A program made the position numbers and the translations under genes. From Eubacteriales bacterium (lineage in GTDB: Bacteria; Bacillota; Clostridia; Oscillospirales; SIG627): 64,000 nt of DNA. Below, one piece after another: positions 1,143 to 47,719 of this stretch (the stretch's first letter is position 1; the number at the start of each line of letters is the position of its first letter). Under the pieces are notes generated by a model. The model was not told the DNA's origin. It ran no database searches and saw only the letters and a program-made list of their open reading frames with translations. The stretch covers positions 3,065 to 67,064 of the forward strand of contig JAZQUE010000074.1 in assembly GCA_045631145.1 (NCBI GenBank), in the 5' to 3' direction.

Positions 1143-2876
1143 ATGTCTTACACAAATCATTCAAGAAGAACAGGAACTTTGGAACAAGTCATTTGCCGTC
1201 ACGAAGATGGTACTCTTCTTCAAGGAGAAGCTGACATGTATGAAAGAATCATAAGAGATTGTGAGGCAAGTGACTTGCATTGGCATTTGTGGTACGATTT
1301 GTCTCTACCTATTCAATATGCAGGGCAATCAGAAATACAAATAGATTTCTTATTGATTTGTGAAAAGGGTGCCATAATCTTAGAAGTAAAAGGTGGTGGC
1401 ATAGAGGTTGTTAATGGTCGTTATTATTATGTTCGCAATAATGGTCTCTCAAAGCAAATGAGTATTACTCCATTTGAGCAAGCACATAATTACAAATGGG
1501 CATTGCTGAATCATCGTGTGCTTAATGGAGAACAATTATTTGTTGACTATGCAGTTGCTTTTCCTCACCAAGAAATGAACAAAACAAATGAGAATGAATC
1601 TATCGACCAAAGTTTTTGGTTATGGGATAAGCAATTGCATGACAATAAGGATAATTCATTTGCTGATTTTTGTGAGAGTATATTAGATGATGCTAGAGAA
1701 AATTCATCAAGAAGTAGATTTGTACCTGTTCTTACAGAAAAAGAATTAGATGAAGTTGTGCAGGTTCTTTCTCCAACCTTAATAGATAAAAGTCGATATG
1801 CACAATCTACATTGTCAGAAGTGTTAAATTGGCTTCACATACAGAATTTGGATATTCTGGAATCTCTTGAAAGAAACAAACGAATCCTTATAGAAGGGGG
1901 GCCTGGAACAGGAAAAACAACCATGGCTAAAGCTTTTATAAAAAAGCACAAAGGGTTAAAAGGATTGTACTTATGCCAAAATATCTTATTATATGCAAAG
2001 ATAAGAGAGGAGTTAGTACAGGCCGATTTGTATAATTGTGATGTTTATACCTTAAATCGTTATCTTGGCATTATATCTCAGAATGTAGATTCAATGTATG
2101 TTTGGACTCCAAAGCTAGTAAAAGATATAATGCAGAAGACAAATCATAAGTTGTACGACTATGTAATAATAGATGAAGCACAAGACATTGCTGATAAGGG
2201 TATTGACATATTAATTGACAATCTTACTTCTATATCTGGAGACGGATTATCTACTGGAAATTATTTGATCTTCTATGACCTTGAGCAAGGCTACAATAGC
2301 AATTCACGCCATATTGATAATTTTGTGTCTTCATATTTACCTTTTTCTGCGCACTATAAGCTTAACGAAAATAAGCGTGTAATCACAAATAGAAAAATCG
2401 TAAGTTTAGCAAATAAACTTCTATTACAGGAAACAAAAGATGCATATACTGACTTTATCAAAGGCTTGGGTGAAGAATCAATACCTTATTTAAGAACAAC
2501 ATTTGTAAACTGCAATAAAGATTTATTTCGGGCATTCAAATCTGCAGTAAAACAGAGTGATGATATTGAGAGAACTGTAGTACTTGTACACTCTGCATTC
2601 AAACGTGTCATGTATCAAGGTGATAGCATATATGATTTATTATCCGACAAGCCAGGTGTGCATATGTTGGACGAAGATAATGTTGTTAATCCTGACAAGT
2701 CGAGCATACCTTTCACTAGTATTTTAAAATACAAAGGGCTTGAAACCAATAAAGTAATATTGGTAATTCCTGCGTCATGTGCCTCTGTTGACCTAAACAA
2801 CTTCCTATTTGAAATCTATGTTGGGTTTACACGTGCTATGATGGAACTTCAAATAATAATTTATTCAGAGCGTTAA
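1143..2876 (+). CDS. NERD nuclease-related domain fused to an SF1 (UvrD/AAA-like) P-loop ATPase/helicase
   Basis: N-terminal NERD-like D..E.K core (EIQIDFLLICEKGAIILEVKGG). Walker A GGPGTGKTT. Walker B/DEAQ box DYVIIDEAQD. C-terminal UvrD_C-like YVGFTRAMMEL. Confidence 0.8.
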   Translation: MSYTNHSRRTGTLEQVICRHEDGTLLQGEADMYERIIRDCEASDLHWHLWYDLSLPIQYAGQSEIQIDFLLICEKGAIILEVKGGGIEVVNGRYYYVRNNGLSKQMSITPFEQAHNYKWALLNHRVLNGEQLFVDYAVAFPHQEMNKTNENESIDQSFWLWDKQLHDNKDNSFADFCESILDDARENSSRSRFVPVLTEKELDEVVQVLSPTLIDKSRYAQSTLSEVLNWLHIQNLDILESLERNKRILIEGGPGTGKTTMAKAFIKKHKGLKGLYLCQNILLYAKIREELVQADLYNCDVYTLNRYLGIISQNVDSMYVWTPKLVKDIMQKTNHKLYDYVIIDEAQDIADKGIDILIDNLTSISGDGLSTGNYLIFYDLEQGYNSNSRHIDNFVSSYLPFSAHYKLNENKRVITNRKIVSLANKLLLQETKDAYTDFIKGLGEESIPYLRTTFVNCNKDLFRAFKSAVKQSDDIERTVVLVHSAFKRVMYQGDSIYDLLSDKPGVHMLDEDNVVNPDKSSIPFTSILKYKGLETNKVILVIPASCASVDLNNFLFEIYVGFTRAMMELQIIIYSER

Positions 2877-2879
2877 AAT

Positions 2880-5288
2880 ATGGATTTCAAGAAAGCATTA
2901 CAAACATTTGATAGTAATTTTGAGAGTATTCTTGAAATTATGAAACTCAGGAAAGAACCTGAGATGATTGACGCTGTCCGTAATCTATTACTTGTTGTAA
3001 ACCTTATTCTAGAATACTTCATGAATCGAGAAGATGATGAGTTGAAGATTCCTGTAATATATTTCCCAATAAGCCAAGAATACGCTCAAGAATTGTGTGA
3101 AGATTTTGTTACATTGAAACTTGGCTTATATACAAATAAAGATTGGAAAGAGCAATTGTGTTATTTATTATCAAAAAAAGACTTATATATCCCCTCTGAT
3201 ATAAAAACAAAGAAACAACATTTAGCATTACGTGAAAATCATAAGTATGAGAATAAACTCTCTGAAATCCTGTCGCGCTCTAGAAATGAATTCATAGATT
3301 ATGGAAAAACACTAATTTATAGTGAAAAATTACAAAAAGAACAAACCACATATCGTGAAGCTAATAAAGATTACAATAGGAAATCAGTTAATAAATACTG
3401 GTATCTAAGACATGCCATTAACGATTCGAACGATTTCTTACGAGGCGGTTGTCCTCTTTCATTGGTTTATGGGGATAGTGATTTCTTCTACGAACACATT
3501 ATTGAAAATGAAGGAAAAGTGAAAATCCAAAACATAATTGTTTTTCCAACAAAATCTGCAGATGGAAGGTATAGTGAGTTTTGTGCGAACTCATTTCAAA
3601 AACCTTATCTGGATGATTTCATAAGTACTGATTGTGGTTTGAAAAATGTATTTTTCTTTTGTTTCTCTCACAAACCTTATCGTCTTCGTAGACTGTTTGA
3701 CTTCAAACAAAGGATGAAAGAAAGAATACAAATATTTGAAGATGAAGTATATGATTTTATTTCATTCACGTATGAAGAAGCTCTTACTTTAACCAATCAA
3801 AATCCCCCAGAACATCTAGTTGTTAATATAGGTAAGGATAGTAACGAGATACAAGAAGATTACGAGACTCTATTTGATGATATTACAAATGGGTTGGATA
3901 GATATGTGTCTCGTAGAAACGAAATGTCTTTGTGCTTTAGTGATGCATTGAGCAAAGATTACGCAAATAGAATACTAGAAGAAACAGAAGCAGACGAAAA
4001 CTTGATTTCTGAGATTTTAAGATTTAATAGTCGATTATGGAAAGAAGAAGCAGAAGTCGCTCTACAGCATTTTGTCTTCAATAGTAATGTTTTCATTATT
4101 ACTGGCAATGACATAAATGAGCAACTTAAGAATTCTGTCCGTGTATTTCTCCAGCTATATTATAGCGCACAAAAAATTACGTTTGGAACCTTCGGAGATT
4201 TAAGAGGATATCTCTGTAATGGAGAATATCAAAATGAAATCAAGGACAAGAAAATCATTATTATATCATTTAGAAGTGATTATACTGATAGTATTTTTCA
4301 CAAATATCCAAACTCGTTTGATCCATATTGTATTAATGGTGATCAGCAAGTACTTGAGATTGCAAATTATTATTTCTTGCGTCAGTATTATGATTGGGGT
4401 AAATATAATTATGGTAAAGCAATTAGAAAAATCTTAAAATCTGAATTCCGTAATTCTGAGATGAGACCTATACTCGTGGAATATAAGCGTCCAACAAAAC
4501 GATTGCTAGAAGATACACGAGAAGAAGAGAGTGACAGAAACAATAGTCGTACAGTACAGAAAACGAAAGTGACTTATAATAATAATCACTCTCAGGAGTT
4601 TTGGAGGTCCGAATGGATGCTATATAAATTTGGAGATCATCTTAGCATTGCACCTTTATCAGATCTCGTGGATTTATATGAATCAGTTACAGACTTGTCT
4701 ATTCAGCCACTATCATGTCTAGTAAGACGTGTTAATAATCAATTCATTGACAGTCAAAAAGACAAAGACCACAAAAGTGAACGGATGTTCAAAGAGCAAT
4801 CTCTATATGGATTGACTCAGGAAGAGATAGATTCCGATACTCAATTATGGAAAATTCTTTTAGCTAAACGAGTTGAAAAGATGGGATGTAAAAATGTCTA
4901 TGAGGAAGTAATGGACAATTTCAATGAGAGATATAGAGTTAGTTACCATTCATTCAAAAGATGGTTAGAACCTGACTATGGTATTCCAAGAGCCAGAAAA
5001 GTTCAAAAATTCCTTGTGGAAAATTATCTTGGTATTAGACCTCCGTATATTAATCTCATACGTAGAATTAAGGAACGAACAAAAAGTGACACCGAAGGAA
5101 TAACAATTAACATTAGACATTTCCTTAACATTGCACTTTTAAACGATGATTTTAATATTGTTTACAATGCTTTAAGTGATGAAATCCGTGATTTGTTGGA
5201 CATTAATTCTTCAGAAGATGTCGAGAAAATCGTCACTGATGTAAAAGAAATAATAAACTTAGAACCCGTAAAATCTATTTCGCAATGA
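2880..5288 (+). CDS. large hypothetical protein (802 aa) translationally coupled to the downstream helicase
   Basis: Long clean ORF. Starts 3 nt after the previous stop. Its stop overlaps the next start as ATGA (5285-5288). No catalytic motif recognised. It occupies the position taken by DrmE or DruH in known helicase/DUF1998 systems. Confidence 0.7.
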   Translation: MDFKKALQTFDSNFESILEIMKLRKEPEMIDAVRNLLLVVNLILEYFMNREDDELKIPVIYFPISQEYAQELCEDFVTLKLGLYTNKDWKEQLCYLLSKKDLYIPSDIKTKKQHLALRENHKYENKLSEILSRSRNEFIDYGKTLIYSEKLQKEQTTYREANKDYNRKSVNKYWYLRHAINDSNDFLRGGCPLSLVYGDSDFFYEHIIENEGKVKIQNIIVFPTKSADGRYSEFCANSFQKPYLDDFISTDCGLKNVFFFCFSHKPYRLRRLFDFKQRMKERIQIFEDEVYDFISFTYEEALTLTNQNPPEHLVVNIGKDSNEIQEDYETLFDDITNGLDRYVSRRNEMSLCFSDALSKDYANRILEETEADENLISEILRFNSRLWKEEAEVALQHFVFNSNVFIITGNDINEQLKNSVRVFLQLYYSAQKITFGTFGDLRGYLCNGEYQNEIKDKKIIIISFRSDYTDSIFHKYPNSFDPYCINGDQQVLEIANYYFLRQYYDWGKYNYGKAIRKILKSEFRNSEMRPILVEYKRPTKRLLEDTREEESDRNNSRTVQKTKVTYNNNHSQEFWRSEWMLYKFGDHLSIAPLSDLVDLYESVTDLSIQPLSCLVRRVNNQFIDSQKDKDHKSERMFKEQSLYGLTQEEIDSDTQLWKILLAKRVEKMGCKNVYEEVMDNFNERYRVSYHSFKRWLEPDYGIPRARKVQKFLVENYLGIRPPYINLIRRIKERTKSDTEGITINIRHFLNIALLNDDFNIVYNALSDEIRDLLDINSSEDVEKIVTDVKEIINLEPVKSISQ

Positions 5289-8200
5289 TAACAAAAAAAC
5301 GCGATTCTTTAGAGTCTTTCATAAAGGAGCAAATAATAGGTCCTGGCGGCTGCAACTACCAGTATTATATAAAGCGTGAGGATAATAGCGAACGTTTGGA
5401 ACCCGGATATTCATATGGTGAAGTCCTTAATACGACTCCAGGAACCATTTACAGCTCTGCAATACTATTCCCACAGAAAGCAGTCGAAGATAATCGTACA
5501 ATCATAGACAACACTCAAGTTGATGACGAAAATTCGAATGAAGAAGTAGATGATATTCAAAATGTGTTAGAAGAGGAACTATCAGAGGAAAAAAATGTTG
5601 ACCATTCTGAAGATATTGATGCCTTGGGACGAAGATTTCCAAATAAGTTCGGAATATCCTGTTGTTTGGACTCAAATCTCATAAATGAGGGTCTTAAAGT
5701 CACCATATCTGGTAGATATTACAAAGAAATTAAATCTTCAACACTTCTTAGAATTAAGATAGAAGATGTAGAAGGATTTCAAACTTTCATTGAGGATGAT
5801 AAGTTTAAACAACTAATAGGAAAATTAGTTGCTATAGATGGTGATGCAATAAGAATAGTTATGGGCATCAAAGATAAGGAACTTAAAGAAAAAAAGGAAA
5901 GTCTTCGTGAAGTAAACAAACATTTCTGCAAAATTGTTGCTATTAATGATGATGGTTCTTTATGTGATATCTATAATGATGCATCGTTCAAACCTGAATA
6001 TAGATTCTTAAGTGCATATAAGGAGCGTTTATTTGCAAAACTCAACCATTTTGATACAGACAATAATTATACTTCTGCAGGCAGAGAAGAGGAAATAAAA
6101 AATAGAATTTCCAAAGTTGAGAAGTACGAAACATTTATCTCTTATATCGAAGATGTTATATCTGTTTTTGATTCGCAGGGTTTCGGTTATTGGGAAGCTA
6201 TCAACTTTGAGAAATCTATTGATCTTTCTGATATAGACCTTACTTCAAAAAGAGTCTTTAGAGCAGATGATTATCCTTCTTTAAAAGATATAGTCAAAGT
6301 TGAAGTAGGCAATGACACATATTTATCACTTGATGCATGGCTACAAGCCATTAAGAATCAAGGAAAAATTTACCTTAAGGTATTGCTAGTCAATAGTTCT
6401 ACACCTATAACTTCCGGAGATGTAAGATATTTTTCAATTGTAACAAAGAAGGTTAATGAGAGAAGTTTTTTTGGCGTTTCTATTAATATATCAAGTCCTC
6501 ATCTTTTGGAGTATCATAAAGAAAATACTTATGATGCCATCGATGAGGAAGCGAATGCGTTGAGATACTTGTATCGAAATATAAAGGATTTTGGTGTTGG
6601 ACATTTGTGTTCTGTCAATTGGGGAATTAAGAAAGGTGTCATGAATATATGGTCAGAGTTTCTACCAACTGTTGAAACACCTGACGTAGAACCAGTTCCA
6701 AGAAACAAAATGTTGGAGGATATCAGTTCAGATGGGAAAATATATGCAACTCCTTACTTGGAATCTCCCAAGTGCCTTCAATTCAAGTGGCTTTCAGTAT
6801 TTTCTGATGCTAAGGACGAAGATATAGCAAAGGGACTACTAGAATTTGCTGAGACATATAAGCATTGGATAGACAATTTATCAACCAATAATAGTCCAAT
6901 AGCTGAAGAGAATAAGCGCAGATGCAATATGGATTATTTACGTATAAAAAATAACGTTGTTGACTTCCTTTCTGATTCAAAAAAGATGCTTGCGTTCAGA
7001 CTTATGAACGCAGCCATGTTCATGCAATTATGGCATAATACCAATGACAATAAGAATAAAGTTGTTATTGATAAGACTAAGCTTACATTTGATTATTATA
7101 AAAAAGAGGCTGACGACACCACAATATTCAAAGGAATGAATGCTGCTTGGCGTCCATTCCAACTTGCTTTTATACTTCTGAACCTTGACGGCATTTTTCG
7201 AAGAAGTGCTGATACACCTTGGTTGGAAAGGAACGAATTGGTGGATCTTGTGTGGTTCCCTACAGGTGGTGGTAAAACAGAAGCCTATTTGGGTATCATA
7301 GCGCTCACTATTGTAAATAGAAGAAGGACTCAAGGCAAAAAGGGTGAAGGTACAGCTGCATTAATGCGTTATACCTTACGTCTTCTTACAACCCAACAAT
7401 TCCAACGTGCTTTACGACTCATTATGGCATTAGAACAAATAAGATTGTGGAATAACACAACTTATAATCTAGGTAATACGCAGATTTCCATAGGCCTTTA
7501 TGTCGGAAAAGCATCTCTTCCAAATACTAATGAAGATTTGGTTAAGGAAATACAAAATTGGGAACACACACACGGAAGAGTGCCACTAGATACATGTCCA
7601 TGGTGTGGTTCGCTGATTAATCCTATCAGAAAAAATAATGAACAACATTTTCGATGCAGTAATTTTAGATGTACATTTGGTGGTCAAAATACTTATCCCG
7701 TTTGTCTTTGTGATGAGCAAATTTACAAAACTCCTCCTACACTTCTATTTGGTACTGTAGATAAGTTTGCGCAATTAGCTCATAAGGTTGACGAGACAGA
7801 TGTGAAAAAAGACTCTAGAGGTATTTTTGGTATAAACAATGGTTGTCTGCCACCAGATTTGATTATTCAGGATGAGTTACACCTTTTGTTGGGCCCATTG
7901 GGTTCGGCAGTAAGTCTTTATGAGTGTGCTATTGACCAGTTATGTTCACAAAAAGACACAAAGGGAAATGTTATTCGTCCAAAGATCATTTCATCTACCG
8001 CAACTACTAGAAATACATCATTGCAAATAAGAGCTTTATATGATAGAAAAGTTAGCATTTTTCCGAAAAACGGAACCGACTATGACGATTCTTTTTTTGC
8101 ATTTTATAAGCGATTTAAGAATGAGGGAGATGCTGACTGGACATACGTAGCAAAACGAAAATATATGGGTGTGCTTCCTACTGGACGTACACAGATGACT

Positions 8201-9313
8201 ACACAGATTCGTCTTGCTGCAATCTTGTTCGTACATAGAGCGTTATTCGAACAACAGAACTATGAATTGATTAGCAACAAGGACTTTATCAAAGCTGCTG
8301 ATTATTATTACACTGTAATTTCATACTTCAACAGTTTGAAGGAAGTTGGTAAGACAGATGCACAATTCTATCAAGAGTTTACAAAATATACGCGAAGATT
8401 ATACAAGCGTGTTTTGAGATTCTCCCACATGCATGAGTGTCTCTATGTATATAATGATCATTTCCACAAGTCAGAGTTAACAGGTCGATTGACAGGTGAG
8501 GAAGCAGTAAAAGAACTTGCCGATGCTCAGAATCGCAAATGGGACCCCCAAATGCGCTTGCCATATCAAGATGAAGATAATAAGTGGCAAAGAGCGAAGC
8601 TTCCGGCCGATATGGTTCTAGCTACAAACATGATTTCAGTAGGTCTTGATGTGTCAAGATTTAACACAATCATCATGAATTCAATGCCACGAAACATTGC
8701 AGAATACATTCAGGCAAGTTCACGTGTGGCTCGCGAAAAGGAAGGATTGGTAATAACACTTCATAGTCCTTTCAACCAGAGAGATGTATCTCACTTCGAA
8801 AAGTTCAGGGAGTTCCACGAGAAGCTATATTATTATGTTGAACCAATATCTATTACTCCTTTCTCTCCTAAGTCGGTTGAAAGGTTCTTGCCTTTATATC
8901 TTGCTGCAATCATCAGACAGAAATATTCAGGATTGGGCAATCGTAAGGATGCAAGTAACATCAACGACTCACTTGCGACAAAAATTAAGGATGAATTAAA
9001 ACGCTACTTTACAGAGAGAGCTGATAGAAGTGATACTCTTCCATCGCAGGAAGCGGCAATTCTGACGCGTGGAATGTTGGACGTTATTATCAATCAAATT
9101 GATCTAAGTATTGGAATTTGGTTGGATGCTGCTAATAGAATGGGACAAAATTTAGTGTATTACATAACAAAATATGGTAGGCGTAATCCGAACGAGGTAT
9201 CACTATTTGCATCCCCGGAAGATTTTGAAGGAGATATGCCAACAGACAAGTGGCTCGTTCCGAATGCTTTGAGAGTTATTGAACCAGAATCTGTTATTCA
9301 TGTAATTCGTTAA
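5285..9313 (+). CDS. SF2 DExH-box helicase, DISARM DrmA-like / Druantia DruE N-terminal-like
   Basis: Motif I WFPTGGGKTEAYLG. Motif II IIQDELHLL. Motif VI EYIQASSRVAR. Inserted zinc ribbon CPWCGS...CSNFRC. Long non-helicase N-terminal region beginning SLESFIKEQIIGPGG. Confidence 0.85.
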   Translation: MITKKRDSLESFIKEQIIGPGGCNYQYYIKREDNSERLEPGYSYGEVLNTTPGTIYSSAILFPQKAVEDNRTIIDNTQVDDENSNEEVDDIQNVLEEELSEEKNVDHSEDIDALGRRFPNKFGISCCLDSNLINEGLKVTISGRYYKEIKSSTLLRIKIEDVEGFQTFIEDDKFKQLIGKLVAIDGDAIRIVMGIKDKELKEKKESLREVNKHFCKIVAINDDGSLCDIYNDASFKPEYRFLSAYKERLFAKLNHFDTDNNYTSAGREEEIKNRISKVEKYETFISYIEDVISVFDSQGFGYWEAINFEKSIDLSDIDLTSKRVFRADDYPSLKDIVKVEVGNDTYLSLDAWLQAIKNQGKIYLKVLLVNSSTPITSGDVRYFSIVTKKVNERSFFGVSINISSPHLLEYHKENTYDAIDEEANALRYLYRNIKDFGVGHLCSVNWGIKKGVMNIWSEFLPTVETPDVEPVPRNKMLEDISSDGKIYATPYLESPKCLQFKWLSVFSDAKDEDIAKGLLEFAETYKHWIDNLSTNNSPIAEENKRRCNMDYLRIKNNVVDFLSDSKKMLAFRLMNAAMFMQLWHNTNDNKNKVVIDKTKLTFDYYKKEADDTTIFKGMNAAWRPFQLAFILLNLDGIFRRSADTPWLERNELVDLVWFPTGGGKTEAYLGIIALTIVNRRRTQGKKGEGTAALMRYTLRLLTTQQFQRALRLIMALEQIRLWNNTTYNLGNTQISIGLYVGKASLPNTNEDLVKEIQNWEHTHGRVPLDTCPWCGSLINPIRKNNEQHFRCSNFRCTFGGQNTYPVCLCDEQIYKTPPTLLFGTVDKFAQLAHKVDETDVKKDSRGIFGINNGCLPPDLIIQDELHLLLGPLGSAVSLYECAIDQLCSQKDTKGNVIRPKIISSTATTRNTSLQIRALYDRKVSIFPKNGTDYDDSFFAFYKRFKNEGDADWTYVAKRKYMGVLPTGRTQMTTQIRLAAILFVHRALFEQQNYELISNKDFIKAADYYYTVISYFNSLKEVGKTDAQFYQEFTKYTRRLYKRVLRFSHMHECLYVYNDHFHKSELTGRLTGEEAVKELADAQNRKWDPQMRLPYQDEDNKWQRAKLPADMVLATNMISVGLDVSRFNTIIMNSMPRNIAEYIQASSRVAREKEGLVITLHSPFNQRDVSHFEKFREFHEKLYYYVEPISITPFSPKSVERFLPLYLAAIIRQKYSGLGNRKDASNINDSLATKIKDELKRYFTERADRSDTLPSQEAAILTRGMLDVIINQIDLSIGIWLDAANRMGQNLVYYITKYGRRNPNEVSLFASPEDFEGDMPTDKWLVPNALRVIEPESVIHVIR

Positions 9314-9318
9314 TCAAT

Positions 9319-11496
9319 ATGGATATTAATATAGACAAACAATATAACATCAGCTCCAGTAAATTTAAGATGCTATCATCTACTTCTGGAGTAGGCTCGG
9401 TTGTTACAACAAAATGGGGGGGATTCATTATGCCCCTTACGATCAATGAATGGGCGTTTATCCGTGCATTAACGGAAAGTATAAACAATCCAGCAAACTC
9501 GCAATACACTAATAAGGATCATCAGGCTGCTACTGGTGCAGAGATAGTTGATGATGAGAGGTTCATAAAATTCCTTCAGGCAAAAAAGGATTTTGTTAAT
9601 CTGAAATGTTTTGCAGCAATACCTCATGTAGGATTAAATGGTGCGAACTACATAGATTATAAGGAGCATCCGTTATATAAGGAGCAGGAATTAAAAAGCC
9701 GAGAGTTACGTCCCGATATGTTCTATATTCCTGCCGTTGATTTTCCTAAATGGTTTATATCATCAAAGTCGGAATTAAAGCGCATTGACGAATGGTTTGA
9801 CCTTTGGAAGCATGAAGAATTTACCAAGGGCGGACACAAACTGCGTCACAACGATGGGAAGGAGGAGTATTTTGCTCCACCAAGAGATCCTCATGGACCT
9901 ACCTTACGAAAGTTCAAGAATCAATTGAATGACCCTACTATCTACAGACCTCTATCACCAGTATCTTTAGTTCTTATATGTGAGAATGGTCATGCGTCTG
10001 ATATAGACTGGTATAACTATTTTTGTGCTTACCTTGATGGTAAGAAGAAAGAAATGACAAGCGAAGAGGGTTTTGATTTATTTGGATATGCTTGCGATAA
10101 CCATTGTACAGTAAACGTAAACGGAAGGCATAGCTTGAAATGGATAATGAACCGCAATCAATCGGAATCATGGGGTACACTCAAATGCGAATATTGTAAC
10201 AAGAGTGTTTCTTTAGCCGGTATTATGAATCTTAAAGTGTTTTGTCGAGGGGAAAAACCATGGGAACCATACCAGGGACAAAATTGGGTACCTTCTCATG
10301 AAAGGTGTATGAATGGTCACTCACGTTCAGTAATGCAGGTTGCAATGGTAACGAGTAATAGTATTTATTACGCTTCATCACAGAGCAGTCTCTATGTTCC
10401 TCTTTCATGGACATCACAAGGAGGGGTTAAATTACAAGGTGATGCATACGACTATCTTGTAGAATTGCAGAACCGTTATGCAAGAAAACTGACAAGGAAG
10501 TCCGATCTGACAAAGGAAGACTTTATAACATCTTTGGGCTATCTTGTAGATGCTGCTGATGCGGATGGCTATTCAATAGATGACAATGAAGCAGAAGCTA
10601 TCACAATTGAGTTCCTTGGTATATCAAATGAAGTTGACGTGGTTAAAACTTATCGTCTAGAGGAATTTAAGGTATTTGTAAATAATGACAATACACCCGA
10701 AGTTAACAGAAAATTTGAGTTTAACGATATTAACATGCGCGAATTCAAGAATGATTTACTTATAGAGAAGTTCTTGAAAATTAAACAAGTTCCGTTACTT
10801 GCTATAACGAGTACTCAGTTGGGGTTTGGACGTGTGAAGATGCCCTCACCTAAGTTAGTCAACGGACAAGTCGTATACAACAATGAGCAGATTCGTCCAA
10901 TCTATTCAGGGAACATTAATGATGTTAAGGTACTTCCTGCTAATCAGATTTATGGTGAGGGATTGTTTTTTGCGTTTGATATAGATAAAATAAAAGAATG
11001 GAGTGAGACCTATGGTCTTGAGAATTACTACAAGACAACGTTAGAAAATGGTAGCATGGGTGAGTTCCTAGCAAGTGAGATGGGAATTTATGGCCGAGCC
11101 AAATACTATCTCTTGCATACGTTCTCTCACCTAATAATGAAGGAATTAGAGTTCTCATGTGGATATCCTACAGCGAGTCTAAGTGAACGTTTATATTACT
11201 CTGATGAAATGTGTGGTGTACTGATATACACAGCAGATGGAGCTGAAGGCAGTATGGGTGGACTTGTATGGCAAGGACAGCCAGAACTAATTGAAAAAAT
11301 AATTATTTCAGCACTTCAACGTGCTTCTGATTGTTCAGCAGACCCTCTATGCTGGGATAATTCAGATGGTTTGAATAAAGCCGCATGTTTTTCATGTGCG
11401 ATGGTATCAGAAACATCATGCGAACAAGGAAATATGGGGCTTGACCGTAGAGCATTGGTGGATCCAGAGTTTGGATATTTTAAAGATTTGATATAA
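9319..11496 (+). CDS. DUF1998 (MrfA-type zinc-binding) domain protein, DISARM DrmB-like
   Basis: C-terminal signature HTFSHLIMKELE...GVLIYTADGAEGSMGGL...CSADPLCWDN...ACFSCAMVSETSCEQGNMGLDRRAL with four Cys. Additional Cys/His clusters in the N-terminal half. Starts 5 nt after the helicase stop. Confidence 0.85.
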   Translation: MDINIDKQYNISSSKFKMLSSTSGVGSVVTTKWGGFIMPLTINEWAFIRALTESINNPANSQYTNKDHQAATGAEIVDDERFIKFLQAKKDFVNLKCFAAIPHVGLNGANYIDYKEHPLYKEQELKSRELRPDMFYIPAVDFPKWFISSKSELKRIDEWFDLWKHEEFTKGGHKLRHNDGKEEYFAPPRDPHGPTLRKFKNQLNDPTIYRPLSPVSLVLICENGHASDIDWYNYFCAYLDGKKKEMTSEEGFDLFGYACDNHCTVNVNGRHSLKWIMNRNQSESWGTLKCEYCNKSVSLAGIMNLKVFCRGEKPWEPYQGQNWVPSHERCMNGHSRSVMQVAMVTSNSIYYASSQSSLYVPLSWTSQGGVKLQGDAYDYLVELQNRYARKLTRKSDLTKEDFITSLGYLVDAADADGYSIDDNEAEAITIEFLGISNEVDVVKTYRLEEFKVFVNNDNTPEVNRKFEFNDINMREFKNDLLIEKFLKIKQVPLLAITSTQLGFGRVKMPSPKLVNGQVVYNNEQIRPIYSGNINDVKVLPANQIYGEGLFFAFDIDKIKEWSETYGLENYYKTTLENGSMGEFLASEMGIYGRAKYYLLHTFSHLIMKELEFSCGYPTASLSERLYYSDEMCGVLIYTADGAEGSMGGLVWQGQPELIEKIIISALQRASDCSADPLCWDNSDGLNKAACFSCAMVSETSCEQGNMGLDRRALVDPEFGYFKDLI

Positions 11497-11545: not shown

Positions 11546-11581
11546 CTATTATCCGAATCATGCACATGATTCGGATAATAG
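11546..11581 (+). terminator. perfect 15-bp stem hairpin downstream of the island operon
   Basis: ctattatccgaatca (11546-11560), 6-nt loop tgcaca, tgattcggataatag (11567-11581). Lies 50 nt after the DUF1998 stop. There is no strong T-run, so intrinsic-terminator function is an inference. Confidence 0.5.
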
Positions 11582-11767
11582 GTTATAAAATATCGTATTA
11601 AAAAATAACACTATTTGTCTGGAGCTACCGAAAAAAATGGATACTTTCGGACTAATTGTCTAAATATCTACTTGGACTGATAGTATCGGCGAAGCGGTAC
11701 CAAGAAAATGTAGGGTTTGCTCATTTATAAACCTCGTATCTTTGCGCTAAATATAGAGCGTGAAGAT

Positions 11768-12274
11768 ATGGCAAACCCCAATTTAACCATGCCGAAATTA
11801 AAACGTGCATTCCAACTGCTTGCGGCCAATGTCCCGCAACGCACCATTTGCGAACAGCTCCACATGGGACGCGGTGTTCTTTCCAAGTACAAGAAAGCTG
11901 CCGATGAGATGAAACTTTCCTATGAGGATGCCGGTCGCCTGAACAATGAGGAACTCGAAAGCTTCCTCCAGTCTGTAAAATCCGCTCCATGCGGTGTGTC
12001 TGCCCAAAGGAAACTTCTGGACGAACTGATTCCGGATTATGTCTCGGATCTTGCACACAACCGCTATCTGACTGTCCAACGCCTGCATGAGAAGTATCTG
12101 GAGAACCATCCTGACGGTTATGGATATACACAGTTCAAGAAAGCCATCCGTAATTATCAGTATGCACATAACCTGAGCTACCACAACACCTATCTTCCCG
12201 GTGCCGAACTCCAGATGGTACCGCTTCAGCGCTATCGGCATTTTATATCTCTTGAGCAGAAATTGTTGTTGTAA
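11768..12274 (+). pseudogene. IS21-family transposase (IstA-like) N-terminal fragment
   Basis: MANPNLTMPKLKRAFQLLAANVPQRTICEQLHMGRGVLSKY is an HTH-type N-terminus typical of Bacteroidota IS21 transposases. The ORF ends after about 170 aa with no DDE catalytic region and no istB partner. A TAnnTTTG box (tatctttg, 11735-11742) lies upstream. Confidence 0.6.
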
Positions 12275-12496: not shown

Positions 12497-12514
12497 TTAT
12501 TTTCCGATGCAAAA
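12497..12514. repeat. prophage attachment-site core, left copy (attL/attR pair with 63026-63043)
   Basis: ttattttccgatgcaaaa versus ttatttcccgatgcaaaa at 63026-63043, 17 of 18 identical. The minus-strand reading is TTT TGC ATC GGR AAA TAA, which encodes F C I G K stop. Confidence 0.75.
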
Positions 12515-12820: not shown

Positions 12821-13897
12821 TTATGCAAACCTCTTTGCTGCGGCTATGATTTCGTCAGCATACTGATAGATGTCGTCGATAGAGGCGATTTTGTTGTGGT
12901 GCTCCTTTTTCGCTTCATCGACGAACGTTATACGCTTGTTATTCTCGGAATCGAGATACAGGCGACAAACAGGCTTTCGATTGTTGTTGTCAATGAAGAT
13001 AGCGAAGTAGGTTTGTGCGTCACGGTAGGTAACACGTTCTGCAGGTACACAGCCTCGGAGGATAGCTTTCACGATATAGAACGCTTGCAGCTCCTCGTCC
13101 GTCGTAATAATTTTGCTTGCGGGTGTTTCCTCAACGGGTTCTGCTGCCGCCTGTGGTTCTGTTGCCTGTTCAACCGTCGGAGTGTCATTGTCCTTGATAG
13201 CTGCTTTCAGGCGTTCCGAAATTGTAGCGTTGATATAATTGCTGATTGTCCGCTTCAACAGGACGGTAAACTGTTCGAGGATTTTCTGTGTGAACACCCC
13301 CTCGTACACCTGTTTGCAGAGGAAACGCACAAGATCAGGCGAGGGACTCGCAAACTCTCTTTCGATAACTGCTTTCAGCTCGCCCATGTATTTAAGTTCG
13401 CTCGCTGTGCTCAATATCGCCCCAACATCAAAATAAGACCTGTGGAACTTTTTCAGTTCTTCGATTTGCTCGTCCTTGATGTCGAGCAGGTTCACTTCCA
13501 AGAAAGGTTTCTCATCCATTTTGTTTGGTTCGGCGAGGTCTGTGTAGAACTTGTAGATGATACCGTTTGTCAGGACACCGAACTTTGCTTTGGAAACGTG
13601 GAAGTAGCGGAGGAGTTGATTATCGTGCAGCGTGAGGTTCTGTTGCCAATGCTTGCACTCGATTAAGATTATAGGTTCGCCGTCACGGAGGATTGCGTAG
13701 TCTATTTTCTCGCCTTTCTTTGTGCCGATGTCACAGCACATTTCAGGCAGCACCTCCAATGGGTTGAAAACGTCGTAACCTAACGCACTAATGAACGGCA
13801 TAATGAGTGCCGTTTTCGTCGCCTCCTCGGTTGGGAGGTTTCCTTTCAGGCTTTCGATACGCTCGGACAGCCTCTTGATTGAATCCTTGAAATCCAT
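12821..13897 (-). CDS. HsdR_N-type (type I restriction enzyme R N-terminal-like) PD-(D/E)XK domain protein, prophage-end cargo
   Basis: N-terminus TEEATKTALIMPFISALGYDVFNP...EKIDYAILRDGEPIILIECK matches the HsdR_N nuclease-fold pattern (D...E.K). It is a solitary gene between attL and the lysis genes. Confidence 0.7.
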   Translation of the reverse strand: MDFKDSIKRLSERIESLKGNLPTEEATKTALIMPFISALGYDVFNPLEVLPEMCCDIGTKKGEKIDYAILRDGEPIILIECKHWQQNLTLHDNQLLRYFHVSKAKFGVLTNGIIYKFYTDLAEPNKMDEKPFLEVNLLDIKDEQIEELKKFHRSYFDVGAILSTASELKYMGELKAVIEREFASPSPDLVRFLCKQVYEGVFTQKILEQFTVLLKRTISNYINATISERLKAAIKDNDTPTVEQATEPQAAAEPVEETPASKIITTDEELQAFYIVKAILRGCVPAERVTYRDAQTYFAIFIDNNNRKPVCRLYLDSENNKRITFVDEAKKEHHNKIASIDDIYQYADEIIAAAKRFA

Positions 13898-14199: not shown

Positions 14200-14739
14200 T
14201 CAAAAACTGAAAAGGCTGTATGATACGCCTATACCTATGTACGGGGCAAATTGGGGCGTTTGCGTCAATGTTACCCCATATCCTGCCTGTATGCCGACGC
14301 TCCACCGTTTCGGTTTCTGCTTTATCTGTACAACCTGCCTTGGCTGTGTAATGAACAGGCTGTCGAGTGTCGGTCTGTAACCGCTGACATAGGCTCGGTA
14401 GGTGTCCGTTTCGTATCTTTTCTGCGTGATAGGTATCTGAACCGTTACGCTGTCTTCGGGAACAGTTTTACCGAAATTTTGTACACTATCCTGCAAGTTT
14501 GGAACGGTTTCAGGCATTTTTGGTTCGCTTGCAGGAAGTTTCTCTGTTATAAACCGCAACACAACACTGTCACGTGGCACGGGCTTATAATAAGGTATTG
14601 TGTCGTACACTGTCAGGGTGTCGGTATAAACGCCCAATGACAGCGATTGTTTACCCCTGTGGCATTGATATACGTTCAAGCACAGCAAAACGCCTACAAG
14701 GACGTAAACAAGGAATTTGGTTAGCTCTTTCATACGCAT
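14200..14739 (-). CDS. membrane-anchored lysis-cassette protein (spanin-like candidate)
   Basis: N-terminal hydrophobic segment FLVYVLVGVLLCLNVYQC. C-terminus GIGVSYSLFSF ends in an aromatic residue, as in OM beta-strands. Overlaps the amidase gene end by 10 nt. Confidence 0.45.
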   Translation of the reverse strand: MRMKELTKFLVYVLVGVLLCLNVYQCHRGKQSLSLGVYTDTLTVYDTIPYYKPVPRDSVVLRFITEKLPASEPKMPETVPNLQDSVQNFGKTVPEDSVTVQIPITQKRYETDTYRAYVSGYRPTLDSLFITQPRQVVQIKQKPKRWSVGIQAGYGVTLTQTPQFAPYIGIGVSYSLFSF

Positions 14740-15326
14740 TGTTTCAGATACATAATTATCCCCTCGACGTGAGCTTTGACGATAGCCTCTTTCCCCTCCT
14801 CGGAAATCAGAATAGCCAAATCCTCCTTGTTATCCATAAACAGGTTCTCGGTCAGAACAGCGGGGCAAGATGTCTTTTTCAATATCCAAAAGTTCTCCTC
14901 CCAATCAGCGTCACCGTCCGAGGTGTCTTTACGAAACTTTGTTCCCAACGGCAGGGCTTCCGCTGCGGCAAAATACAGGCAGTTGGCAAGTCTGTCTGAT
15001 TTTGTCGTTCCGACACTTGTATAGGCTGACCAACCACGGGCGGACTTCCATTCTCCACAGCCCGCCGCATTGACGTGTACTGATATGAGAATGACATTAT
15101 CCTTACCATATCGTCCGCAAATCTCATTCACTCGACGGGAACGCTCCGACAGTGCGATGTCCTGTTCCTCGGGAACGATACGCTGCACGTCGTAACCCCT
15201 GTTCTTCAACTCTGCTTCAATACGTCGGACTATTTCTCTCGCCCACGCATACTCACGAAAAGAACCGTCTGGGCTTCGCTTCCCTGCGGTTTCCTGTCCG
15301 TGTCCGTTATCCAATAAAATTTTCAT
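14730..15326 (-). CDS. N-acetylmuramoyl-L-alanine amidase (endolysin)
   Basis: MKILLDNGHGQETAGKRSPDG...ISVHVNAAG is an Amidase_3-like pattern. Adjacent to small membrane proteins. Confidence 0.8.
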   Translation of the reverse strand: MKILLDNGHGQETAGKRSPDGSFREYAWAREIVRRIEAELKNRGYDVQRIVPEEQDIALSERSRRVNEICGRYGKDNVILISVHVNAAGCGEWKSARGWSAYTSVGTTKSDRLANCLYFAAAEALPLGTKFRKDTSDGDADWEENFWILKKTSCPAVLTENLFMDNKEDLAILISEEGKEAIVKAHVEGIIMYLKQCV

Positions 15327-45951: not shown

Positions 45952-46230
45952 TTACAGGTCTTTTGTCAATTCAATGAATTTCGTAAAGAAATCAGGGTTG
46001 CAGCTTGACAGCTCAATGTAGGTTTTGCCGAACTCGGGGAACGTGTGTACGGCGAAATGGCTCTCTGTGAGCAGCCACAACGCTGTATATCCCTGCGGCG
46101 TAAAATGGTGGTCTGTGAAGCACAGGATATTGAACCCCGACTTTTTCAGGGCTTCATCAAATATCTCCCGTATCTTCTGTGGATTCGTTTCCTGTATCCA
46201 CTTTGAATCGTTCCAAATCTTCGCTTGCAT
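45952..46230 (-). CDS. S-adenosylmethionine decarboxylase-like protein (SpeH/class 1 pyruvoyl AdoMetDC-like), short form
   Basis: GYTALWLLTESHFAVHTFPEFGKTYIELSSCN parallels the AdoMetDC core V(V/L)ISESH(L/I)(T/S)IHTWPE...D(I/L)FTC, including the Glu-Ser self-cleavage site. Overlaps the upstream methyltransferase gene by 74 nt. Confidence 0.6.
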   Translation of the reverse strand: MQAKIWNDSKWIQETNPQKIREIFDEALKKSGFNILCFTDHHFTPQGYTALWLLTESHFAVHTFPEFGKTYIELSSCNPDFFTKFIELTKDL

Positions 46231-47719
46231 ATTCTATCTTCTTGAAGTTGTTCTTGATTTCCTTTGTCTTGCCCTTGTAGAACACGAGGATATTTTGGTG
46301 CATCTTTGCAACCTTTCGGCTCTCCATATATCGACCTGCTCGCAGGGCTGTACTTGCCCCCGTTTCAACGAGGATAATTTCATTGTAGAGAGGCATTCCC
46401 GCTTCCTTGAAAATGCGTTTGATATCGCCGCAGAAGTCGTAATAGAAGCCTGTTGATTTATCTCTTACATCGCCTACGACGATAACCGCAAAACGGTTTT
46501 CTTTCAGACAGCCGACAGCCGCCTTGAAAGCGTTCTCCAATATCTTGATGAAATCCTCGTAGCTATCCTGATTGCTTGCGTCGTTCTCGAGGTCGCTGTA
46601 TTTCTCGAGGTCGAAATAAGGCGGGCAGCTGAACAGGAGGTCTTGGCTGTCAGGGGCGATATGTTGTGCGACGTTCTGACCGTCGTCGTTGATGTATCGG
46701 GCTGTCATTCCCTCCACACGTTCGTTATTGAGGCGAGCCTGTTCAGGACGAAGCTCAATGCCGACGAACTCATTTCCGAGGTGTGCAGAAACGTAACCGA
46801 AGACGCTATCTCCTGCGAAGCAGTCAAACGTCTTGCAGTTGTCCTGTCCGAACCAACGGCAGACGATTTCAGCCATAACAGGGTCGAGCAGGGAAACGCC
46901 CGCCGACAGAACCTTGCTTGCTTCACGTTCTTTCACGTCGTCGGGAACATACTTGTCGAGGTATTCCTTGAACGTGATACCCAATTCCTCACGGTGCTGT
47001 CGTGTACGCTGATACAGGTCTTTGTACTTGATTTCGGGCGAGGTTATGAGGGTGTCGTTACGGCTCTCTCCATTGTCGCCGATAAGCTCACGCCATTTCT
47101 TTTTCCGTTCCTGCCAATATCCCTTTCGGGTGTCGAGGATTGAGAAAGGAGGGACTATAAATCGGTCGTTCAGGGAAGCGTTGGCGGGCTTACTGTTGGT
47201 TGCTCCGCTTGACTCTCCGTTCTCCCATTCCTTGTTTTGCCACACGTCAAGTCCCCAATCGTCGAGTTCTTCTGCGTCCCACTCGTTGGCGAGTGCGTCC
47301 ATATCCCATTCTCCATATCCGACGTTATCCTTGATGATGAACTCCCGCTGTTCCTCCTCGGACAGTTCCGTCGCCTTGATGATATGAGCTGTCGGCTTGT
47401 CTTTCCAACGCTGCCAATACTCAATGAGGTTGTCCTGTTCGGCTGCTGTCTTCTTCTGAAAATCCCTTGCTTCTGACAGGCGGGATTTCAGCTCTGCCTC
47501 GTCCATATCGGAAATGGCTGTCAATGCCCTGTAACGCATATTGCCGCCGAGAGCTACAAAGGTGTTATCAACGACAATAGGGCGGAGTTCCAACATCTTC
47601 GGAAGCACGAGGATTGAACAGATAAGCTTCTCAAACTTGTCGTCCTTGATGATACGGGGGTTCGCCCCGTTTACCTGTATCTGCGACAGGTTTACGATTT
47701 CTGTTTTCATTGTTCCCAA
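46157..47719 (-). CDS. ParB-like nuclease domain fused to a DNA methyltransferase domain
   Basis: N-terminal ParB-like IVNLSQIQVNGANPRIIKDDKFEKL...LRPIVVD. Motif I-like FDCFAGDSVFGY. Motif IV-like FSCPPYFDLEKY. Confidence 0.75.
   Translation of the reverse strand: MGTMKTEIVNLSQIQVNGANPRIIKDDKFEKLICSILVLPKMLELRPIVVDNTFVALGGNMRYRALTAISDMDEAELKSRLSEARDFQKKTAAEQDNLIEYWQRWKDKPTAHIIKATELSEEEQREFIIKDNVGYGEWDMDALANEWDAEELDDWGLDVWQNKEWENGESSGATNSKPANASLNDRFIVPPFSILDTRKGYWQERKKKWRELIGDNGESRNDTLITSPEIKYKDLYQRTRQHREELGITFKEYLDKYVPDDVKEREASKVLSAGVSLLDPVMAEIVCRWFGQDNCKTFDCFAGDSVFGYVSAHLGNEFVGIELRPEQARLNNERVEGMTARYINDDGQNVAQHIAPDSQDLLFSCPPYFDLEKYSDLENDASNQDSYEDFIKILENAFKAAVGCLKENRFAVIVVGDVRDKSTGFYYDFCGDIKRIFKEAGMPLYNEIILVETGASTALRAGRYMESRKVAKMHQNILVFYKGKTKEIKNNFKKIEYASEDLERFKVDTGNESTEDTGDI

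Follow-up and report, generated by a model that had tools for sequence, protein, structure and literature searches.

How does a bacterium that carries a restriction machinery of the DISARM type, with no recognisable DNA methyltransferase beside it, tell its own DNA from that of an invader? The question is raised by a six-gene operon at the left end of the stretch of DNA analysed here (the window: 64,000 nt, contig C74:3065-67064), which comes from a fragmentary metagenome-assembled genome (MAG) of 1.2 Mb in 262 contigs, 71% complete. The genes lie on one strand in the order radical S-adenosylmethionine (SAM) enzyme (rSAM hereafter), 226-aa protein, NERD-helicase, 802-aa protein, DrmA and DrmB, and the successive intergenic gaps from rSAM to DrmB are 13, 1, 3, -4 and 5 nt. 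Characterised DISARM systems tell self from non-self by a classical SAM-dependent DNA methyltransferase, and the definition of DISARM by Ofir et al. (2018) is said to comprise a core of drmA, drmB and drmC together with a methylase and either drmD or drmE.

We propose, as the reading that we favour on balance, that this is a horizontally mobile defence operon of Bacteroidales from gut and rumen and belongs to a distinct DISARM lineage, in which rSAM self-marks the DNA in place of the methyltransferase and the NERD-helicase takes the place of the phospholipase D-like (PLD) nuclease. The helicase, DUF1998 and 802-aa genes would make up its restriction half, a claim that is rather probable only together with the reading as a whole. 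The operon was not filed as canonical DISARM class 1 or class 2 because neither DrmC nor a methyltransferase is present, and from its gene content we classify rSAM-headed DISARM as a new DISARM-derived variant. A sequence-only reading of this stretch had suspected an undescribed architecture, which seems to be so in the literature covered: in these mostly open-access papers no description was found that links this rSAM family to modules of the DISARM, Dnd or Pbe kind, though an earlier report is possible, and the survey of YprA helicases that covers ARMADA, BRIGADE and TALON (PMC12458937) does not include an rSAM-headed DISARM.

A DrmA-DrmB pair of the DISARM type

The helicase gene (5285-9313, + strand) encodes a 1342-aa DrmA-like DExH protein of the YprA family, in whose translation the motifs FPTGGGKTEAYLG, QDELHLL and QASSRVAR and an inserted zinc ribbon (CPWC...CSNFRC) can be read. 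PADLOC identified it as DrmA (1.1e-167), and its sole sequence match in the PDB was DrmA of the solved Serratia DISARM complex (7S9V_A, 3.8e-106); with the NCBIfam DrmAS model it scored 699 bits, under the equivalog cut-off of 950. The separate gene that starts 5 nt past the DrmA stop (9319-11496, +) encodes a 725-aa DrmB-like OB-CON-DUF1998 (MZB) protein, with a four-Cys C-terminus (CSADPLCW...CFSC...SC) and a Pfam MZB/DUF1998 match. It was recognised as DrmB by PADLOC (8e-52) and by the NCBIfam model NF038324 DrmB_fam (263 bits, over the cut-off of 240), and its sole PDB sequence match was the DrmB chain of the same complex (7S9V_B, 2.7e-36). Judged by these sequence comparisons, the two proteins are true homologues of the solved DISARM DrmA/DrmB pair. 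Open reading frames (ORFs) and translations confirm what the sequence-only reading had described: a 1342-aa helicase with these motifs and a zinc ribbon, a 725-aa four-Cys DUF1998 protein 5 nt past it, and an 802-aa gene (2880-5288, +) whose stop overlaps the helicase start (ATGA). In a FastTree tree of DrmB, which has long branches, all 25 rSAM-linked sequences fell into one clade (support 99), across a long branch from the 12 methylase-linked sequences.

By Pfam, PADLOC and flank scans no PLD domain was detected in or beside the operon and no DNA methyltransferase domain in it or within ~10 kb, in agreement with the sequence-only reading; DrmC (PLD) and DrmMI (N6) or DrmMII (C5) were both absent from the six proteins and the flanks. 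The contig extends 3,064 nt upstream of window nt 1, and inspection of these 3 kb revealed only a helix-turn-helix (HTH) gene and the start of the rSAM gene. The sole PLDc_2 match of the assembly is on a separate contig, C112, and its methylase matches are either on other contigs or 35 kb off and broken. The match at that distance, an N6_N4 DNA-methylase-like stretch at ~46157-46642 on the - strand (C74:49221-49706), carries an in-frame TGA and is probably a broken restriction-modification (R-M) gene with no relation to the operon.

The 802-aa protein as a remote DrmE

The 802-aa protein, in which the sequence-only reading had seen no recognisable motif, had no match in Pfam, PADLOC or NCBIfam scans. 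That reading had placed its gene where DrmE or DruH would be; the DrmE half of the suggestion stood, and no DruH match was obtained. A language-model search led to clusters that carry Pfam DrmE_C (score 0.90), and of 400 other genomes from the phylum, 13 were found to encode true DrmE_C proteins. The Pfam DrmE_C model matched none of 26 members of the 802 family, even at E<=1. When compared by hhalign with 11 true DrmE proteins, a profile built from 26 sequences of the family gave a probability of 1.6%, which is not significant; a profile of 79 sequences, enriched with the most divergent family members, gave 93.6% (E 2.1e-7), with residues 653-754 of the 802-aa protein aligned to the DrmE_C region. 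The smaller profile gave a probability of 0.3% with an L. plantarum plasmid protein in the "DrmE position", a comparison that says little about DrmE, since the PADLOC DrmE models do not recognise that protein either. From the profile-profile match, the 802-aa protein is a very diverged DrmE homologue with a shared DrmE_C domain.

Its AlphaFold model (pLDDT 86) has, over residues ~1-530, a two-lobe fold like that of superfamily 2 (SF2) helicases (Foldseek E ~1e-5), and a VIA search matched the model to HsdR and HrpB (Z 8.6, 164-184 residues). Because neither Walker A nor DExx is conserved among the 26 members, the protein is probably no ATPase. The family is rare: a profile search found 182 representatives among 1.84 billion proteins, and about 6 of 36,145 genera (one genome per genus) carry it, mostly Bacteroidia, too few for that cross-genus census to show linkage. 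Its most distant member with readable flanks (847 aa, E 1e-29) has the same gene context.

A radical-SAM gene in the methyltransferase slot

The three genes upstream of the 802-aa gene are, as the sequence-only reading held, not methyltransferases; they are not mere context, since the first of them is the 3′ end of rSAM, an obligate partner. The window (positions 1-447, +) holds the last 148 codons of this gene, which starts 984 nt upstream of window nt 1 and spans C74:2081-3511 (476 aa from its ATG). To survey the gene neighbourhood of the 802-aa homologues, a census was seeded with the 802 family in metagenomes, where a locus counted as evaluable if 1.5 kb or more of sequence upstream was available, and clustering was at 90% identity. 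rSAM was the head gene, ahead of the 802-like gene, DrmA and DrmB, in 63 of the 64 evaluable loci and in all 19 clusters, on the same strand and with a median gap of 26 nt to the next gene, and the order was the same in loci of 802-aa homologues at 26-54% identity. The 226-aa gene and the NERD-helicase occur together in six clusters; seven have the NERD-helicase alone, and six lack the two. No cluster has a methylase of the DrmMII kind. The census thus defines an invariant core of rSAM, 802-like protein, DrmA and DrmB.

The 11 DrmE_C loci of the phylum have the order DrmMII (C5 methylase), DrmE (~860-880 aa), DrmA, DrmB. None of them has rSAM, and none of 80 rSAM-type loci has a DrmMII-like gene: the slot held by the C5 methyltransferase in these sister DISARM loci is that of rSAM in the lineage of the window. 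In six of the 11 methylase-type loci (L204, L205, L207, L209, L211 and L213) a NERD-helicase of ~580 aa adjoins DrmA or DrmB, so it is already a DISARM component in the phylum, plausibly in place of the PLD protein DrmC. This sub-architecture, DrmMII-DrmE-DrmA-DrmB with a NERD-SF1 (superfamily 1) helicase, found no mention in the DISARM-related literature examined.

In several metagenomic loci (L179 and L188, also L170 and L182) multiple ORFs take the place of an intact DrmA and 802-like gene. The contig of L188 has 39x coverage, hence its split genes are probably real decay. rSAM is intact in L179 and L188 despite the fragmented DrmA and 802-like genes, which may be read as the pattern expected of a dead restriction half with a persisting modification gene.

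The NERD-helicase and the 226-aa protein

The gene at 1143-2876 (+) encodes a 577-aa protein that joins a NERD nuclease domain of the PD-(D/E)xK type to an SF1 UvrD/RecD-like helicase. Pfam NERD (2e-11), AAA_19 and UvrD_C_2 and the PADLOC models "NERD+UvrD" and RTasNERD-Hel matched it, and the motifs D...EVK, GGPGTGKT and IIDEAQD are present. The NERD-helicase is probably the nuclease effector in place of DrmC, because six of the 11 methylase-type DISARM loci carry one.

The 226-aa protein (461-1141, +) had no Pfam, PADLOC or NCBIfam match. Natural rSAM fusions of 704 aa have a C-terminal domain homologous to it (BLASTP E 8e-9), which makes it an accessory protein of the rSAM module, and it is optional in the family, being present in 6 of the 19 cluster architectures. 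Language-model leads, all below 0.9, were to winged helix-turn-helix and FokI-recognition domains; it is possibly a winged-helix DNA-recognition domain.

The radical-SAM enzyme

All three Cys of the CxxxCxxC motif (C192, C196 and C199) are invariant in the aligned rSAM homologues. A cross-genus census found 66 carriers, mostly distant, in which these positions read C in 66, 66 and 54 of the 60-66 sequences; at one genome per genus the family is too rare for this census to show linkage. A second invariant motif, IGLVDADLLxNGTRHPNL...GGTG, lies in the N-terminal part. More than 3,700 clusters match rSAM, and in many of them the protein is a 704-aa fusion that includes a homologue of the 226-aa protein as a domain; the rSAM-226 alignment was built on such natural fusions, as MAFFT misplaced the free-standing 226-aa proteins.

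The model of a fusion of the 704-aa type (pLDDT 84) has an N-terminal Rossmann domain, similar to B12-binding domains, followed by a radical-SAM barrel. In fold comparisons rSAM was closest to MgmA (Z 14.4, 296 residues aligned), AprD4 (14.0), MiaB (12.7) and RimO (12.6), and viperin reached only Z 6.2; further fold matches were OxsB (Foldseek 2.5e-7), TsrM, CysS and TokK. Residues 1-135 taken alone resemble the B12-binding domains of AerR (Z 5.9) and photocobilin (Z 5.4). AprD4, MiaB and RimO have a similar layout and do not use B12. The N-domain has the invariant residues R-H-P-N, S-x-V ~49 residues on and G-G ~30 after that (residues 20-104 of the fusion P0193, ~24-108 of the window protein P0002), a spacing reminiscent of the classical cobalamin-binding motif DxHxxG...SxL...GG, the Asp of which is not conserved. 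An auxiliary Fe-S cluster or an identity as a methylthiotransferase was considered and rejected as unsupported: conserved Cys are lacking in the N-domain, and beyond the CxxxCxxC motif the whole protein has just two. Like class B radical-SAM methylases and MiaB/RimO, rSAM has a Rossmann N-domain and then a CxxxCxxC barrel; unlike them, it lacks significant sequence similarity to the solved members and conserved Cys in the N-domain, and its gene lies among restriction modules, not in a biosynthetic, tRNA or ribosomal setting.

The same gene heads other restriction cassettes

We surveyed 80 rSAM loci from named genomes and typed them by the gene after rSAM; one locus could not be typed. The hosts are mostly gut and rumen Bacteroidales, isolates included, with a few Firmicutes, Treponema and Kiritimatiellia MAGs. 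DrmAB cassettes account for 37 loci (type A). PbeA (2.5e-205), a small protein, PbeC (1.4e-74) and a PbeD-like protein follow rSAM in 11 loci (type B), and DndF (5e-90), DndG (8e-35) and DndH (E=0) in 18 (type C). Another 11 loci carry a SNF2-helicase cassette with a 226-like gene at its end (type D), and single loci carry an AAA_5 McrB-like protein with a LlaJI-like one (type E) and a 226-like gene with a GmrSD-type DUF262/DUF1524 protein (type F). The rSAM tree has 20 or more changes of partner type, compared with a lowest possible number of 6, and the rSAM of the window nests in a Pbe-linked clade (support 99). Examples of non-DISARM cassettes headed by rSAM are L081:9962-19729 (Paraprevotella clara YIT 11840), L060 (Prevotella sp. 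tc2-28), L032 (Bacteroides ndongoniae), L042, L056 and L091.

Tentatively, for here we are slightly more doubtful than convinced, rSAM, with or without its winged-helix-like partner, would be an interchangeable DNA self-marking "M" component for at least six unrelated restriction machineries (DISARM-type, DndFGH, PbeABCD, SNF2, McrBC-like and GmrSD-like) of gut and rumen Bacteroidales, acting by a radical and possibly B12-dependent modification of DNA bases or backbone; this would amount to an epigenetic mark not recognised before and to R-M-like immunity of a new class. In the annotated parts of the rSAM-headed DndFGH, Pbe, SNF2, McrB/LlaJI-like and GmrSD-like cassettes, no Dnd or Ssp modification genes were recognised. 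Pbe/CxC systems are described as coupling to phosphorothioate (PT)-modification genes or cytosine methylases, with no mention of a radical-SAM partner, and both they and DndFGH are often decoupled from PT genes (PMC10853773). The rSAM head gene may explain such "orphan" DndFGH and Pbe modules.

Proposed mechanism and its alternatives

In the scheme that we favour, rSAM, aided where present by the putative DNA-binding domain of the 226-aa protein, would mark host DNA covalently, for instance by radical C-methylation, perhaps with the help of cobalamin, or by some related change to base or backbone. DrmA-DrmB would load onto incoming DNA without the mark, with the DrmE homologue, SF2-like and predicted to be catalytically dead, as their scaffold or regulator, and the NERD-helicase would degrade the unmarked DNA, the role of the PLD nuclease DrmC. 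We infer that DNA is what rSAM marks because DNA is the only substrate common to the unrelated partner modules, and because rSAM takes the place of DrmMII in DISARM and that of PT or methylase genes beside Pbe. rSAM-DISARM is methylase-less, yet probably not modification-less.

Several points weigh against this scheme. The action of rSAM on DNA is deduced from context. With Pfam Radical_SAM (PF04055) rSAM scored 22.6 bits, under the cut-off of 29.5, and a sequence-profile search of the PDB with the family returned no significant relative, so no known enzyme can serve as a guide to its chemistry; it is the modelled fold that suggests cobalamin binding. The homology to DrmE is confined, as far as sequence goes, to ~100 residues. 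DNA binding by the 226-aa protein, for which the leads are sub-threshold ones from the language model, may or may not hold, and the fusion model has pLDDT <50 at residues 585-626, within the 226-like part. The NERD-helicase is missing from 6 of the 19 rSAM-DISARM clusters, in which the nuclease step is assigned to no gene. GmrSD-like and McrBC-like enzymes are usually modification-dependent, which fits self-marking less neatly, and DrmAB is reported to be activated by DNA ends or single-stranded DNA (ssDNA), so that a self-mark may not be strictly needed.

These last points lead to an alternative in which rSAM is an effector that makes a modified nucleotide, or damages or modifies the invading nucleic acid, in the manner of viperin or Ophion, beside a modification-independent DrmAB that senses DNA ends. 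The activation of DrmAB by DNA ends or ssDNA in the DISARM literature accords with it, the type-IV-like GmrSD/McrBC-like partners would be sensible if the enzyme marked foreign DNA for cleavage, and radical-SAM defence effectors exist, namely the pVips and also Ophion (bioRxiv 10.1101/2025.09.30.679545). The latter, which was compared with our operon, combines an rSAM with PHP and PRTase proteins and is unrelated in architecture. We consider an effector role unlikely: viperin came far down among the fold matches (Z 6.2, compared with 14.4 for MgmA), rSAM has a large Rossmann N-domain and is frequently fused to a putative DNA-recognition domain, and an effector would be unexpected as the sole constant gene ahead of six unrelated nuclease or translocase modules. 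Moreover, rSAM holds the DrmMII slot of the sister loci and the slot of the modification genes of Pbe/CxC (PMC10853773). A sub-case of self-marking is that the rSAM module installs or mimics a backbone mark such as phosphorothioate, by a new route to the mark read by modules of the Dnd/Pbe/Ssp type, with DISARM recruited as a further reader. Its partners indeed include DndFGH, PbeABCD and the GmrSD-type DUF262/DUF1524 protein. DndFGH and PbeABCD are PT-linked, and SspE, which senses PT, has the same DUF262/DUF1524 architecture as the GmrSD-type protein; the fold is near that of the sulfur-inserting enzymes MiaB and RimO (Z 12.6-12.7), and class B radical-SAM enzymes include a P-methylase (PhpK). 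This sub-case seems distinctly unlikely, given that the N-domain lacks the conserved cysteines of a methylthiotransferase auxiliary cluster, with only two further Cys conserved, that in the annotated loci neither a cysteine desulfurase gene nor one of the DndC/SspD kind could be recognised, and that the DndFGH and Pbe/CxC modules are often free of PT genes anyway (PMC10853773).

It is quite improbable that the rSAM gene is functionally independent, be it as a mobile-element neighbour, as an entry point of defence islands, or as a protein maturase or regulator that travels with the cassettes. Such a role could be imagined from the mobile surroundings, with their integrases, primases and VapE-like genes, from the XRE-type HTH gene often found close by (66 of 160 loci) and from the fact that several of the closest structural matches, MgmA and RimO among them, modify proteins. 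Yet rSAM is the first gene, on the same strand and a median 26 nt from the next, in every cluster of the 802 family; it is found fused to the 226-aa partner, which elsewhere sits within the cassette; the partner modules have no protein in common on which it might act; and L179 and L188 keep an intact rSAM next to a broken DrmA and 802-like gene, as would be the case for a modification gene. As for the operon as a whole, the sequence-only reading had left open whether it is a methylase-less DISARM derivative or a split Druantia-like system, noting that the combined size and the helicase-plus-DUF1998 content are like those of DruE. Druantia type III pairs DruE, a fused helicase-DUF1998 protein with C-terminal PLD-like domains, with DruH. 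The former option was upheld and the latter is scarcely credible: the PADLOC DruE match covers 43 residues of generic helicase (E 5e-5, against 1e-167 for DrmA), DruH had no match, the PDB matches are to DISARM (7S9V) only, the 802-aa protein is DrmE-like, and a split of helicase and DUF1998 is characteristic of the DISARM branch (PMC12458937).

Relation to known systems

DISARM class 2 (DrmE-DrmA-DrmB-DrmC-DrmMII), especially in its Bacteroidota form (L204-L213), is the closest in layout: it shares the split DrmA/DrmB, a tight single-strand operon in a defence island, a DrmE-family protein (~800-880 aa) directly upstream of DrmA and, in the Bacteroidota form, a NERD-SF1 helicase in the cassette. 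The window has DrmA, DrmB and, recognised by profile-profile comparison only, a DrmE-type protein next to DrmA. It differs in having neither a C5 or N6 methyltransferase nor the PLD protein DrmC, in the rSAM (with or without the 226-aa protein) at its head, and in the swapped order of NERD-helicase and DrmE. Its DrmE also lies beyond the Pfam and PADLOC models, its DrmB is in a separate clade, and its DrmA is under the NCBIfam equivalog cut-off.

The combination of a modification-type module with interchangeable restriction modules is shared with the PT systems (DndABCDE + DndFGH; DndCDEA + PbeABCD/CxC-ABC; SspABCD + SspE), whereas the head gene here belongs to the radical-SAM superfamily and not to the PP-loop DndC/SspD family. 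PADLOC found no DndA-E, SspA-D, DndFGH, PbeABCD or SspE gene in the window. Within the YprA family, DISARM is the one branch in which separate genes consistently encode helicase and OB-CON-DUF1998 protein, normally with a PLD nuclease after them; the helicases in ARMADA, BRIGADE, TALON and Druantia come fused to DUF1998, have a BrxA-like insert and usually a C-terminal nuclease, and their partners include BrxHII/PglX (ARMADA), 7-deazaguanine genes and TPR-CSD/TBP proteins (TALON) (PMC12458937). These four systems have in common with the window a central YprA-family helicase with DUF1998; TALON also pairs its helicase with a NERD-type nuclease, and in BRIGADE and Dpd YprA helicases are coupled to a non-methyl modification of DNA bases. 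None of the four has a head gene of this rSAM family or a DrmE homologue, and no BrxHII-like, PglX-like, TPR-CSD or TBP domain was found in the six window proteins or the flanks.

Boundaries and mobile surroundings of the operon

The island has a GC content of 32-39%, against 45-50% in the flanks (beyond nt 12500). A 66-aa XRE/RstR-like HTH gene (C74:1747-1947, +) lies upstream of the window, ~130 nt before the rSAM gene. In 66 of 160 related loci, with DrmAB and Pbe types both represented, a homologue of this XRE-type HTH gene lies upstream in the same orientation, and given this recurrence the HTH protein may regulate the cassette. Downstream, the sequence-only reading had reported a hairpin and an insertion sequence (IS) fragment, and both were found. 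A perfect 17-bp inverted repeat at 11546-11581, 50 nt past the DrmB stop, may mark the end of the operon; the terminator scan did not call this repeat, the stem of which is AT-rich, as a terminator. At ~11692-12201 there is an istA-like fragment of the IS21 family (it matches istA of Segatella copri DSM 18205 with 69% identity across ~510 nt), which forms the downstream edge of the island. Its assignment is by DNA similarity, as the stretch has no intact transposase ORF and no Pfam transposase domain.

Past the IS fragment, all on the - strand, lie genes for a 358-aa protein that has an N-terminal domain of type I HsdR, PD-(D/E)xK-like (12821-13897), a DUF6808 protein (14200-14739) and an Amidase_3 N-acetylmuramoyl-L-alanine amidase (14730-15326), which may be leftovers of another defence or prophage element. 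Elsewhere the cassette adjoins genes for a VapE/BT4734-like primase-helicase, a tyrosine integrase, a resolvase and Prim-Pol/D5 proteins (L005:321-2516, L007:105-2391 and the contig of P0296), and many of the contigs that carry it are 13-16 kb long, which suggests carriage on small integrative mobile elements. Near-identical rSAMs were seen across phyla, in a Clostridia MAG (L085) and Parabacteroides segnis (L094), and in a Lachnospiraceae MAG (L071) and a Bacteroides MAG (L069); they reflect either very recent transfer or binning contamination of a mobile island.

Implications

The 802-aa family, previously unannotated, is now placed with DrmE, and the model of this protein, with its apparently ATPase-dead SF2-like fold, offers a first structural clue to the DrmE component. 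If rSAM modifies DNA, it could be a new class of modification module. The hypothesis lends itself to direct testing, as several carriers are available as cultured isolates; among the carriers are Parabacteroides segnis BX2 and Dysgonomonas sp. 520 (DrmAB type), Bacteroides ndongoniae Marseille-P3108 (Pbe type), and Paraprevotella clara YIT 11840 and Prevotella sp. tc2-28 (DndFGH type). If it is true that rSAM marks DNA, bacterial epigenetics would gain a new chemistry, present in some of the bacteria that are most abundant in gut and rumen; the lack of self-attack by "orphan" DndFGH and Pbe modules that have no PT genes would be explained, and one could begin to address what stands in the way of phage therapy and of the genetic manipulation of Bacteroidales.

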